A DNA stretch of 64,000 nucleotides from Corallococcus coralloides. Its GTDB lineage: Bacteria; Myxococcota; Myxococcia; Myxococcales; Myxococcaceae. The DNA is taken from NCBI RefSeq assembly GCF_044792175.1, contig NZ_CP172866.1. One strand, written 5' to 3'. Position numbers and translations under genes: made by a program. This document shows positions 1 through 40,657 of the stretch, piece after piece (position 1 is the stretch's first letter; every line of letters begins with the position of its first letter). Below the pieces are notes generated by a model. The model was not told where the DNA came from. It searched no databases and was given only the letters and a program-made list of their open reading frames with translations.

Positions 1-830
1 ATCATCATCAGCACCAGCACCCCGGACAGGACGGTTTGAGAGCCGCCCACCGGGAAGTCGTAGAAGTACGCGAACAGGTATCCGCCCGCGCCCGCGATGC
101 CGCCCAGCACGGTCGCCGTGAAGAAGGTCCACGGCAGCCGCAGGTCCAGCACCAGCGCGGCGATGGCCGACAGCGTGGAGAACGCGAAGACGGGCAGGGC
201 GCCCAGGGCCCGCGCGCACACGCCCACCATGATGCCGATGGACACCATCAACACCGTGTCCAGCAGCTTCACCGGCAGCCCCTGCACGGTGGCGCCGATG
301 CGGTCGAAGCTGACGAAGGCGATGCCCCGGAACCACCACAGGTGCAGCACCATCAGCACCGCGCCGGCCACCGCCACCGCCTGGAGTTGATCCGGCGTCA
401 CCAGCACCGCGGTGCCGAAGAGGATGCCCTGGATGTCGTGCGCCTCCTGCGCGATGCGGTCGCCCACCAGGATGGCCGCGCCGCCCGCGAAGGCGAACGC
501 GCACCCCAGCAGGCTCTCCCGCGACAGCCGCAGCCGCGCGGGCTCGATCATCAGCAGCAGCGTGGCCGCGACGGACAGCACCACCGCGCCCACCAGCGGA
601 TCCACGTGCACGCCCAGGTGGATCTCCGCGAAGAAGGCCAGCGCCACGCCCAGGCCCGCGGTGTTCGTCACCGCCGCGCTGACGAACACCATGCGCCGCA
701 GCACCACGTAGACGCTGAGGAAGCCCAGCACGCACCCGGCGATGAGCGCGCAGAGGATGGGGTCGCGGAACAGCTCCCAGCCCGCCTGGAACTGTTCCCA
801 CTTCGAGGGCTCAAGCAGGGTTGTTTCCAC
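1..830 (-). CDS. ABC-3 family metal (Zn/Mn) ABC transporter permease, ZnuB/TroC-like; 3' end beyond the window
   Basis: I translated the reverse strand by hand: GTG start, then VETTLLEPSKWEQFQAGWELFRDPILCALIAGCVLGFLSVYVVLRR..., a hydrophobic polytopic ABC-3 permease. It overlaps the upstream ATPase gene by 20 nt. It is absent from the ORF track because no stop falls inside the window. Confidence 0.75.
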   Translation of the reverse strand, partial: METTLLEPSKWEQFQAGWELFRDPILCALIAGCVLGFLSVYVVLRRMVFVSAAVTNTAGLGVALAFFAEIHLGVHVDPLVGAVVLSVAATLLLMIEPARLRLSRESLLGCAFAFAGGAAILVGDRIAQEAHDIQGILFGTAVLVTPDQLQAVAVAGAVLMVLHLWWFRGIAFVSFDRIGATVQGLPVKLLDTVLMVSIGIMVGVCARALGALPVFAFSTLSAIAALVLDLRLPWTFFTATVLGGIAGAGGYLFAYFYDFPVGGSQTVLSGVLVLMM

Positions 831-37281: not shown

Positions 37282-38544
37282 TCAGGACAGCTTCACCCGC
37301 GTGACCTTCAGCTTGCCCACCTGCACGGTGTACTCGCCGGCCCCCAGCTCCGCCTTGGGGTCGGTGACCTTCTCACCGTTCACCTTCACGCCGCCCTGGC
37401 CCATCATCTTTCGCGCCTCGGTGGCGGAGGCGACGAACTTCGTCTCCGGCAGCAGCTTGGTGACGAGCAGCTTCTCCGCGCCGCCAAGCGACACCTCCAC
37501 GAGCGGCAGGTCCTCCGTGGACAGCTCCTTCTTGGCGAAGCGCTTCTCGAAGTCCTCCGCCGCCTTGCGGCCGGCCTCCTCCCCCTGGAAGCGCGCGGCC
37601 ATCTCCTGCGCGAAGGCGACCTTCGCGGCCTTGGGGTGCGCCGCGCCGGACTTCGTCTGCTCCTCCAGCTCCAGCACCTGCTTGAGCGGCATGGCGGAGA
37701 GCAGCTTGTAGTACCGCCACATCAGGTCGTCCGTGATGCTCATCAACTTGCCGAAGATGCTGTCCGCCGGCTCGTCGATGCCCACGTAGTTGTCCAGGCT
37801 CTTGGACATCTTGTTGCCGGTGATGACGCCGTCCACCAGCTTCGCGTCCAGGCCCTCCAGGATGGGGCCGGTCATGATGACCTGCGGCTCCATGCCCTCT
37901 TCCTTCATCAACTGGCGGCCGACGAGCAGGTTGAAGAGCTGATCCGTCGCGCCCAGCTCCACGTCCGCCTTCAGCGCCACGGAGTCGTAGCCCTGCAGGA
38001 GCGGGTAGAGGAACTCGTGGATGGCGATGGAGGTGTTCTCCCGGTAGCGCTTCTTGAAGTCGTCGCGCTCCAGCATGCGCTGCACGGAGTAGCGCGCGGC
38101 CAGGCGGATCATCCCCTCGGTGCCCAGCGCGTCGAGCCACTCCGAGTTGAACTTCACCACCGTCTTGTCCGGGTCCAGGACCTTGAAGACCTGCTGCTTG
38201 TACGTCTCCGAGTTGACCTTCACCTGCTCGCGCGTGAGCGGAGGCCGGGCGGCGTTCTTGCCGGACGGGTCCCCGATGAGCGCGGTGAAGTCACCGATGA
38301 GGAAGACCACCGTGTGGCCGAACTCCTGGAAGCGCCGCATGCGCGTGAGCAGCAGCGTGTGGCCCAGGTGCAGGTCGGGACGGCTGGGGTCGAAGCCCGC
38401 CTTGATGATGAGGGGCTTGCCCTTGTCATACGAGCGCTGGAGCTTCTTCTTCAGGTCCTCCGGCACGTGGAGGTCCACGGTGCCGCGAGTGACTTCTTCG
38501 AACTGCTCTTCGGGGGTTGCCTTGCGCAGTGCGTCCGGGTTCAT
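37282..38544 (-). CDS. tyrS: tyrosine--tRNA ligase
   Basis: HIGH motif (LHLGH), KMSKS motif, and a C-terminal S4 domain. Confidence 0.9.
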
Positions 38545-38562
38545 GGCGCCGCGGACACTAGC

Positions 38563-38612
38563 CCAAAAAAGGCGACGGGCAGGGCGGGACTTCCGTGTCC
38601 GCCCCACCCGTG
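38563..38612 (-). terminator. rho-independent terminator (minus strand) downstream of the MTHFS gene
   Basis: Extended GC hairpin GGGCGGGAC...GTCCGCCCC, followed on the minus strand by TTTTTT (forward AAAAAA at 38565-38570). It sits between the MTHFS stop and the tyrS start. Confidence 0.6.
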
Positions 38613-38660
38613 GCTGTCACCCTGACTGTCGTCCTACGGCTCGGGGGCCGTCAGGTGTCT

Positions 38661-39290
38661 TCAGGTGTCCAGGAAGTCGAAGCTGCGGTAGAGGCCGCGC
38701 AGCGTCTGGCTCTCCGTGACGATCTGGTCCATGTCCACGTCGTCGCTCGTGGTGGGCAGCGCCTGGACGATCTGGTCGTTGAACGCGAGCCCCACGCGGC
38801 GGCTGCGCGGGCTGGCCGCCTTGAGGGTGGCGTCGTAGTAGCCACCGCCGCGCCCCAGCCGCTTGCCGTCCGGGCTGAAGCCCAGTCCGGGCACCACGAA
38901 CAGGTCGATCTGATCCACCGGAATCAGGTCCGAGGAGTTCGTGGGCTCACGGACGCCCAGGCGCCCCGGCTCCAGCTCGCTCTCCGACTTGATGGCCCGG
39001 AAGGCCAGGATGCGCCCGTGCACGTGGGACAGCGGGTAGCAGACGATCTTCTCGTCCTGCAACGCCGCGATGAGGATGTCCCGGGTGGGCACTTCGCCCC
39101 GGATGGGGGCGTAGAGCGCCACCGTCCGCGCCTTGTCGTAATAGGGCGATGCCAGGAATCGAGACTGGACCTTGAGGCCCCGCTCGTCGATGAGGTCGTT
39201 GGTCATCGCCTTGCGGCGCGCCGTCAGTTCCTCACGAAGCGTTACCTTCTTCTCCGCCGCCGCCGCCGTATCCACCGCCGTCTCGCTCAC
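38661..39290 (-). CDS. 5-formyltetrahydrofolate cyclo-ligase (MTHFS, YgfA-like)
   Basis: 209 aa with GLGFSPDGKRLGRGGGYYD. GTG start with GGAG 9 nt upstream. Confidence 0.8.
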   Translation of the reverse strand: MSETAVDTAAAAEKKVTLREELTARRKAMTNDLIDERGLKVQSRFLASPYYDKARTVALYAPIRGEVPTRDILIAALQDEKIVCYPLSHVHGRILAFRAIKSESELEPGRLGVREPTNSSDLIPVDQIDLFVVPGLGFSPDGKRLGRGGGYYDATLKAASPRSRRVGLAFNDQIVQALPTTSDDVDMDQIVTESQTLRGLYRSFDFLDT

Positions 39291-39309
39291 CGCCGCCGCT
39301 CCAAAGAAA

Positions 39310-39500
39310 GAGTCCCCCGCCGAGCCGTGTGTCCAGCGTCCATTGAACCCTTAGAAGCCAGGTGGGGACCGAAATCATGTCACCGCAGGCTTCCCTCATC
39401 CCCGGTGAAGGGGGAGGGCTTGCACATGGCGACCGAAACGGACCCCGGAATGGACGTATCGGTTCGAATTTCTGCTGGGCATCACGCACCCCGCAGGGAA
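39310..39500 (-). ncRNA. candidate 6S RNA (ssrS) upstream of the ygfA-like gene
   Basis: 190-nt non-coding stretch with lower GC and several hairpins (for example CCCTCATCCCC-GGTGAA-GGGGGAGGG), directly upstream on the same strand as the MTHFS gene. The 5' and 3' ends are partly complementary. The ssrS-ygfA linkage is a known synteny. No coding ORF here is plausible. Confidence 0.3.
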
Positions 39501-39661
39501 CAGACCTTTTACCACTCAAATCGTGCTGCAAGTCCTTAGAATTACTGGGAAAATCCCAGGGCGTTCTGGGAAAATGATAAGGATGGAGAAGCGTGCGGTC
39601 AAGCCGTCCTCGCGCGTTTACAAGCCGCCCCGTGGACTTCTATGATGCCCGGGTCCCCGAC

Positions 39662-40657
39662 ATGTCGCTCCCGACCCCAACATTGGCTCTCGCGGCGGTA
39701 GCCTGCCTCGCCTCCGGATTCGCCTGGGCGGGTCCGCAGCTCAACAGTACCTATCAGGCAGATGCCTTCGGCCCCATCGAGTTGCGCTCGGACGGGGAGC
39801 ACCTGGTCGGCACGGCGCCGGCCGGGGGGCCCTGCCAGCGCCCGGCCGCCGAGCCGATATTGACGGGGGACTTCCAGGGAAACGTCTTCCTGGGGGAGCT
39901 CACGCTCTGTCAGACGGGGGACACCTGCACCCCGTCCCGCAGCTTCCCGGTGATGCTCGTCTACAACGTGGAGGAGCGGGCGCTGGGCGGCGTGGTGAAG
40001 CTGGAGGACGACTGCGAGTCCCCGGCGCTGCCCAAGAACCGGATGCTGGTGCTCCGCGCGACGGAGCAGGGCGCGGCGCTGACGCCGGCGACGGCGCAGG
40101 CCCCCGAGCAGCGCCAGGTGCAGGCGCCCGTGCCTCCTCCGCCGTCCGGTGGGGCCGCGCAGGTGGCGGCGCAGCGCCGGCTGGAGCCCCTGGACGTGGC
40201 GGCCACCCTGAAGCTGGGGCAGTCGCTGCTGCCCAACAACCCCTTCGGGGCGTCGCAGCAGTTCCAGTTGGTGCTGTCCCAGGAGAAGGAGAAGAACAAC
40301 GCCTGGGCGCTGACGGGCATGGGCGTGGCGTACCACCTGCGCAAGCAGCAGCCGGAGGCGCTCAAGTACCTGGATCAGGCGCGCAGCGTGGGCAGCGGCG
40401 CGGCGCGGGCGGAGGCCTTCTTCTGGACCGCGTGCGTGAAGCGGGCCGCGCAGGAGTCCGCGTTCGCCCAGGCCGCGCTGAAGCGGGCGCTGCAGGAAGG
40501 CTGGTCTCCTCCGGAGGGCAACGCGCTGGTGGAGCGCGAGCTCCAGCAGTTCGCCAATGAGGGAACGTTGTACGAGGCGCTGGTGAAGCAGGCCCGCGGT
40601 CGCAAGCAGCGGGTCCAGGGCCGTGATCCACAAGGAGCTGGAAGCTCCAGCCCGTGA
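39662..40657 (+). CDS. secreted protein with C-terminal TPR-like helical region (hypothetical)
   Basis: Signal peptide MSLPTPTLALAAVACLASGFAWAG. The stop overlaps the kinase gene's start. Confidence 0.6.
   Translation: MSLPTPTLALAAVACLASGFAWAGPQLNSTYQADAFGPIELRSDGEHLVGTAPAGGPCQRPAAEPILTGDFQGNVFLGELTLCQTGDTCTPSRSFPVMLVYNVEERALGGVVKLEDDCESPALPKNRMLVLRATEQGAALTPATAQAPEQRQVQAPVPPPPSGGAAQVAAQRRLEPLDVAATLKLGQSLLPNNPFGASQQFQLVLSQEKEKNNAWALTGMGVAYHLRKQQPEALKYLDQARSVGSGAARAEAFFWTACVKRAAQESAFAQAALKRALQEGWSPPEGNALVERELQQFANEGTLYEALVKQARGRKQRVQGRDPQGAGSSSP

Follow-up and report, generated by a model that had tools for sequence, protein, structure and literature searches.

An RF00013-type 6S RNA gene (ssrS) upstream of ygfA in Corallococcus coralloides

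Introduction

6S RNA, a well-known small RNA, restrains RNA polymerase by mimicry of an open promoter, and ygfA immediately downstream is typical of proteobacterial ssrS genes, although not obligatory. A 6S RNA is expected in myxobacteria, in which starvation control of housekeeping transcription is relevant to development; a full-text literature search found no open-access paper devoted to myxobacterial 6S RNA. Linkage of ssrS to ygfA has been reported for alpha- and gamma-proteobacteria, as well as for some beta- and delta-proteobacteria (PMC9130861; PMC4064990).

In a 64,000-nucleotide stretch of the C. coralloides genome (contig NZ_CP172866.1; hereafter, the window), an earlier note, made from the sequence alone, had marked about 300 bp upstream of a ygfA-like gene, on the same minus strand, as a candidate 6S RNA gene. 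Is this region ssrS, or is it a structured leader of ygfA or the coding sequence of a small protein, and how would its transcript begin and end?

Results

A full-length 6S RNA match upstream of ygfA

The whole 64 kb window was scanned with Infernal against Rfam 15 at the gathering threshold. The sole match at this level was RF00013 (6S/SsrS RNA), located at 39310-39502 on the minus strand, with a score of 68.3 bits against a gathering score of 46.4 and an E value of 2.3e-11. The match extends over model positions 1-187 of 187, and thus over the full length of the model. This is the check that the earlier note had proposed, and it was positive; the core range given there, 39310-39500, departs from the Rfam match by no more than 2 bases, so that the gene had been recognized from the raw sequence with an accuracy of two bases. 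In a search for competing Rfam families across 38500-39750 at E values up to 10, only chance-level matches were observed, all of 18 bits or less. The features of the RNA, numbered with nt 1 at window position 39502, are as follows.

39310-39502, minus strand: 6S RNA (ssrS), 193 nt, as delimited by Rfam (RF00013, fold z = -3.3, covariation)
39474-39501, minus strand: closing stem, 5' strand (nt 2-29), with its partner at 39312-39337 (fold; columns 27/193 and 28/192 compensatory)
39312-39337, minus strand: closing stem, 3' strand (nt 166-191) (fold, covariation)
nt 34-42 with nt 153-161, minus strand: P2 helix, AUU-CGAACC with GGGUUCAAU (fold, Rfam alignment)
39447-39460, minus strand: central bubble, 5' strand (nt 43-56, GAUACGUCCAUUCC) (Rfam alignment; near-invariant in Myxococcaceae)
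39351-39364, minus strand: central bubble, 3' strand (nt 139-152, CACCUGGCUUCUAA) (Rfam alignment)
39365-39446, minus strand: terminal stem-loop (nt 57-138) (helices 5 to 8 with compensatory changes)

The rod fold and its covariation

The minimum free energy (MFE) of the 193-nt RNA was -89.5 kcal/mol, which was below the values of all 200 dinucleotide shuffles, and the rod was kept as a module inside the predicted 280-nt precursor. The two complementary pairs of segments listed in the earlier note, GUGCGUG/CACACG and GCCCAGC/GCUGG, both lie within the MFE fold. The central bubble is bordered by G-C pairs on both sides, CC(41-42)/GG(154-155) and GGGG(57-60)/CCCC(135-138). The open-bubble form lies 5.5 kcal/mol above the MFE. 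The P2 helix is present in the single-sequence MFE structure, and the form with a collapse helix, described below, is the RNAalifold consensus.

Twenty myxobacterial orthologues were aligned by MAFFT with no structure reference. RNAalifold recovered the rod from this alignment, with 95.4% of the cells paired. In the consensus, 16 pairs were changed on both sides, compared to 7.5 +/- 1.6 in column shuffles, and none of the 500 shuffles reached 16; when the partners were slid by 1-3 columns, only 3-8 compensatory pairs were seen. As the RNAalifold structure was derived from the same sequences, the Rfam consensus structure, taken from the cmscan alignment, was mapped onto the alignment as an independent check. 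The Rfam-derived structure gave 81% paired cells and 10 compensatory pairs, compared to 40-52% and 4-7, respectively, for the slid controls. The covariation analysis that had been called for was therefore positive. The compensatory changes are located in the inner closing stem and the terminal stem, and include CG to GC in 7 sequences at alignment columns 28/192; the GCCCAGC/GCUGG helix, proposed beforehand as part of the closing stem, covaries by this CG to GC change in 7 sequences.

On both sides of the bubble, the adjoining helices are near-invariant in sequence, and covariation is therefore uninformative there. Likewise, the P2 helix with the open bubble and the collapse helix both lie in invariant sequence, so that covariation cannot choose between them; the one compensatory change seen in P2 comes from the Anaeromyxobacter sequence only. 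In the Rfam alignment of 39310-39502, 8 of the 50 pairs are non-canonical, which reflects an imperfect register of the terminal stem and not absent helices.

Conservation of the ssrS-ygfA arrangement

A YgfA protein search of a species-level genome collection yielded 78 loci, the closest of which were from Corallococcus species (96-97% amino acid identity), and 40 of the 78 were scanned with Rfam. RF00013 matched in 36 of these 40 loci. In all 33 Myxococcota loci scanned, which came from Corallococcus, Myxococcus, Pyxidicoccus, Archangium, Cystobacter, Hyalangium, Vitiosangium, Citreicoccus, Anaeromyxobacter and many metagenome-assembled genomes (MAGs), the match was directly upstream of ygfA on the same strand, scored 51-89 bits, and ended 20-60 nt before ygfA. 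The linkage was also seen in three of the six alphaproteobacterial loci. The synteny on which the earlier note had relied thus holds throughout the Myxococcota loci scanned (33/33), and the gene order of a divergent signal-peptide gene, ssrS, ygfA and tyrS is found Myxococcaceae-wide.

In a census of sequence motifs, both 6S end motifs were present in 64 of the 78 ygfA loci. One 3' motif match, in L072, was false and was rejected: it lies inside ygfA, and the correct 3' end according to Rfam is at position 2466 of that locus.

The full-length RF00013 match, the covariation and the synteny together bear out the original 6S RNA call. As far as they can be tested in sequence, all of the defining features of the 6S family are present in 39310-39502. 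We are nearly certain that this segment of the minus strand is ssrS and that it encodes a 6S RNA, with a rod and a bubble, which would release the polymerase through pRNA synthesis as in the family.

A conserved promoter and a variable leader

39574-39602, minus strand: sigma-70-type ssrS promoter, with TTGACC (39602-39597), a 17-nt spacer and TATCAT (39579-39574) (consensus scan)
39503-39567, minus strand: 5' leader of about 65 nt, predicted for the primary transcript and presumably processed off

The promoter consensus scan returned two sites, compared to 0.1 expected. The start predicted for the ssrS promoter is at about A39567. The promoter motif with its 17-bp spacer was present in 64 of 69 related loci, and three Anaeromyxobacter loci carry TTGACA, 17 bases and TAGGAT. 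The spacing between the -10 element and the 6S 5' end ranged from 21 to 84 nt across the loci, with a mode of 71, and the leader sequence was poorly conserved, except for AAGG(G/U)C immediately ahead of the 6S RNA. Since both the length and the sequence of the leader vary, 5' processing is suggested, as for the E. coli precursors, and the leader is likely to be removed in this way.

A second, proximal promoter candidate (TTGCAG ... TGGTAAAAG), immediately ahead of the 6S 5' end, was rejected, as its spacing is wrong and the region is unconserved. Within the leader, a hairpin, CCUGGG-AUU-UUCCCAG, is predicted at 39541-39563 on the minus strand, and leaders from several genera also contain CCCAG/CCUGGG motifs; this hairpin may be a processing determinant.

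Two departures were seen among the MAGs. For the Myxococcaceae MAG PMG_225 (L009:2180-2290), the 6S gene is present without the conserved promoter and leader, and the divergent promoter runs almost straight into the 6S 5' end, which reflects either a genuine deletion or an error of assembly. For a clade of Myxococcaceae MAGs (L053-L066, e.g., L054:2256-2459), the 204-nt 6S RNA has about 13 nt inserted into its terminal stem, the -10 element is TATTGT, and the leader is short, the -10 element being separated from the start of the 6S RNA by about 40 nt.

The U-tract at the junction with ygfA

39303-39311, minus strand: U-rich tract UCUUUCUUU, right after the closing stem (conserved in all Myxococcota loci)
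38661-39290, minus strand: ygfA/fau homologue, 5-formyltetrahydrofolate cyclo-ligase (PF01812, 133 bits)

The Pfam match agrees with the earlier identification of the downstream gene, and tyrS comes next, as had also been stated. The ygfA homologue starts with a GTG at 39290, 19 nt past the 6S 3' end, and the U-tract is followed in order by a GGAG ribosome site (39302-39299) and the GTG. In the 10 nt after GGGGGAC, 5-9 T (mean, 6.9) were found in all of the approximately 64 Myxococcota loci, in genomes of about 68% GC, whereas a U-tract after the closing stem was absent in all three alphaproteobacterial loci. Folding revealed no local terminator hairpin between 6S and ygfA (z = +0.3).

A tentative explanation, which we consider possible but rather doubtful, is that the Myxococcota 6S rod acts as a leaky intrinsic terminator, composed of the GC-rich closing stem, the U-tract and the upstream AAGG element. 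Besides the position of the tract directly after the GGGGGAC stem end and its restriction to the Myxococcota loci in this comparison, the A-rich AAGG element ahead of the 5' strand is consistent with such a function, and the closing stem is the only local hairpin that abuts the tract. However, the loop of such a terminator would be about 170 nt, far from a canonical one, and the tract overlaps the translation-initiation region of ygfA, for which it could be conserved instead. In addition, E. coli has a U-rich stretch, UUCUUAUCU, 3 nt past the 6S 3' end, and yet its termination is Rho-dependent: according to PMC3299989, citing Chae et al., transcription terminates inside ygfA in a Rho-dependent manner, and the 3' end is then trimmed. 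The U-tract could alternatively be a processing site or a ygfA translation signal. If the leaky terminator were real, the 6S 3' end would arise directly, with no need for Rho or trimming, and read-through into ygfA, the ribosome-binding site of which begins within about 10 nt of the tract, would be metered and the expression of ygfA limited.

The same junction would fit, at first sight, a structured 5' UTR that controls ygfA in cis, for instance as an attenuator or a folate-related riboswitch, and is not released as a free RNA: the stretch is directly upstream of ygfA and co-oriented with it, no separate terminator hairpin lies between them, and a U-rich tract follows the stem. We regard this as highly improbable. 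At E values up to 10, riboswitch and leader families all scored 18 bits or less, whereas the 6S model matches end to end, and since no competing family exceeds 18 bits in 38500-39750, the riboswitch or leader reading is without support. Moreover, the invariant CCGAU template region is specific to 6S RNA, and E. coli, with the same arrangement, yields a free 6S RNA (PMC3299989).

Base composition and reading frames of the stretch

The GC content is 0.52-0.61 across 39350-39650, compared to 0.65-0.80 in the flanks, in agreement with the lower GC content noticed at the outset. The view that the stretch holds no credible ORF also stands, as the ORFs that cross it are spurious long frames typical of high-GC DNA; a 314-aa ORF on the plus strand, for example, is antisense to ygfA. 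We give almost no credence to the encoding of a small protein, for which ORFs of 99 aa (39232-39531, minus strand) and 71 aa (39362-39577, plus strand) are available, because the 99-aa ORF overlaps ygfA out of frame, the orthologues of the stretch differ by indels of 1, 2, 4, 5 and 13 nt, which are not multiples of three, the substitutions are compensatory for base pairing and not codon-periodic, and long spurious ORFs are common on both strands throughout the high-GC window.

The pRNA template region and in-silico refolding

Returning to the 6S RNA, the CCGAU template motif is near-invariant across the Myxococcaceae and aligns with CCGAU(44) of E. coli, and the segment GAACCGAUAC aligns with E. 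coli GAGCCGAUAU. In E. coli, pRNA synthesis starts at U44 of the CCGAU motif. The homologous residue, U45 (window 39458), is the predicted pRNA start here. The predicted pRNA would be 5'-AUCGGUUCGAAUUUC..., with the 5' beginning 5'-AUCGGUUCG..., and its first five bases, AUCGG, are identical to those of the E. coli pRNA. The predicted pRNA 15-mer is identical in 15 of the 19 distinct orthologues.

When nt 31-45 were blocked in silico to mimic the pRNA hybrid, the cost of refolding was low, about 2 kcal/mol, owing to new pairing of GUCCAU (nt 48-53) with AUGGAC (nt 161-166) and to a small hairpin in the 3' bubble. Folding of the orthologues showed that the GUCCAU/AUGGAC refolding recurs in most genera. 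A helix formed on collapse of the central bubble has been described for the B. subtilis 6S-1 and A. aeolicus 6S RNAs, whereas gamma-proteobacterial 6S RNAs carry a 9-bp 3'-bubble hairpin, unlike the collapse-helix type (PMC8876501).

A proposed course of transcription and release

Polymerase binding, pRNA synthesis, processing and growth-phase accumulation are what we infer from the 6S family as a whole, and the following scheme is accordingly one by analogy. Transcription would proceed from the conserved housekeeping-sigma promoter through a leader of about 65 nt and run on into ygfA, and the mature RNA, about 190-200 nt, would presumably be cut from this transcript, as in E. coli. The central bubble of the rod would mimic an open promoter and occupy the active site of the primary-sigma RNA polymerase, thereby damping housekeeping transcription during starvation or stationary phase. 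Once nucleotides are available again, the 5' bubble strand would serve the polymerase as a template, from about U45, for a short pRNA, the synthesis of which would unzip the helix adjoining the bubble. The freed 3' strand, AUGGAC, would then re-pair with the distal 5' bubble strand, GUCCAU, to form the collapse helix, and the polymerase would be released.

Comparison with other 6S-type RNAs

The E. coli 6S sequence used as a reference is 100% identical to the annotated ssrS and was matched in 5,426 of 5,426 E. coli genomes; RefSeq lists the E. coli counterpart as an ssrS ncRNA, which lies 20 nt before fau/ygfA. The two RNAs are alike in length (193 nt here and 184 nt in E. coli), in the succession of closing stem, P2 helix, central bubble and terminal stem along the rod, in the CCGAU pRNA start motif with its five identical pRNA bases, in the 5-formyl-THF cyclo-ligase gene on the same strand 19-20 nt downstream, and in the sigma-70-type promoter with a 5' leader. 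They differ in that the upstream neighbor is the divergent signal-peptide gene here and zapA in E. coli, and in that a single conserved promoter, 21-84 nt upstream, is evident here. In addition, the closing stem is longer and more GC-rich here, with the GCCCAGC/GCUGGAC helix in the place of an internal loop of the Rfam consensus, the hairpin predicted in the 3' bubble has only 4 bp instead of the 9 bp in E. coli, and the U-tract after the stem is stronger.

The predicted GUCCAU/AUGGAC collapse-helix release and the small 3'-bubble hairpin resemble those of B. subtilis 6S-1 and A. aeolicus 6S RNA (PMC8876501), whereas the genomic context is different, as 6S-1 lacks this kind of linkage to ygfA, and sequence similarity is low. 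The Ms1 RNA of Actinobacteria is also rod-like, of similar size and bound to RNA polymerase (PMC9130861). In contrast to 6S RNA, however, Ms1 binds the core polymerase, not the holoenzyme, lacks the 6S bubble and template features, and forms a separate family found in Actinobacteria only, whereas the RNA described here matches RF00013 itself.

Overall, this ssrS is an ordinary representative of its RNA family, and both the family and the genomic context are known. It is detectable by Rfam-based annotation at default thresholds and in this sense is already known; the biology adds nothing to the output of such pipelines, and no new principle is involved. What is gained for the window is a clean annotation of the promoter, leader, 6S RNA, ygfA and terminator. 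As to how 6S RNA is made in a lineage of high GC content, the conserved U-tract and the variable leader are minor points of detail.

End of the transcription unit and neighboring genes

38565-38611, minus strand: intrinsic-terminator-like hairpin and U6, end of the ssrS-ygfA unit (folding: -36.1 kcal/mol, z = -2.96)

The terminator that the earlier note had placed at 38563-38612, before tyrS, was confirmed as a 13-bp GC-rich hairpin (38575-38611) followed by UCGCC and U6 (38565-38570). A simple terminator scan of 38400-39800 returned 0 sites and missed this one because of the 5-nt spacer between the hairpin and U6. The U6 run ends only about 20 nt before the ATG of tyrS (38544), which leaves no room for a tyrS promoter between them; tyrS may be transcribed by read-through or from a promoter within ygfA. 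Outside Corallococcus, many genera carry an extra 850 bp or so between ygfA and tyrS, which is probably another gene; it is absent in Corallococcus and some others. In one alphaproteobacterial MAG, a two-piece (permuted) tmRNA gene (L074:3877-4318; RF01849, 200 bits) was found about 830 bp downstream of ygfA.

On the other side of ssrS, a second sigma-70-type promoter (TTTACA, 18 bases, TATGAT; 39617-39646, plus strand) stands back-to-back with the ssrS promoter and is conserved across genera. It drives the gene at 39662-40657 (plus strand), which encodes a signal-peptide protein without a Pfam match. Since no more than 16 nt separate the -10 element of the divergent promoter from the ATG, the mRNA would have almost no leader. 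The next gene, for a Ser/Thr protein kinase (PF00069; 40654-41646, plus strand), shares 4 nt at its start with the stop of the signal-peptide gene (40654-40657), suggesting translational coupling of the two genes in one operon.
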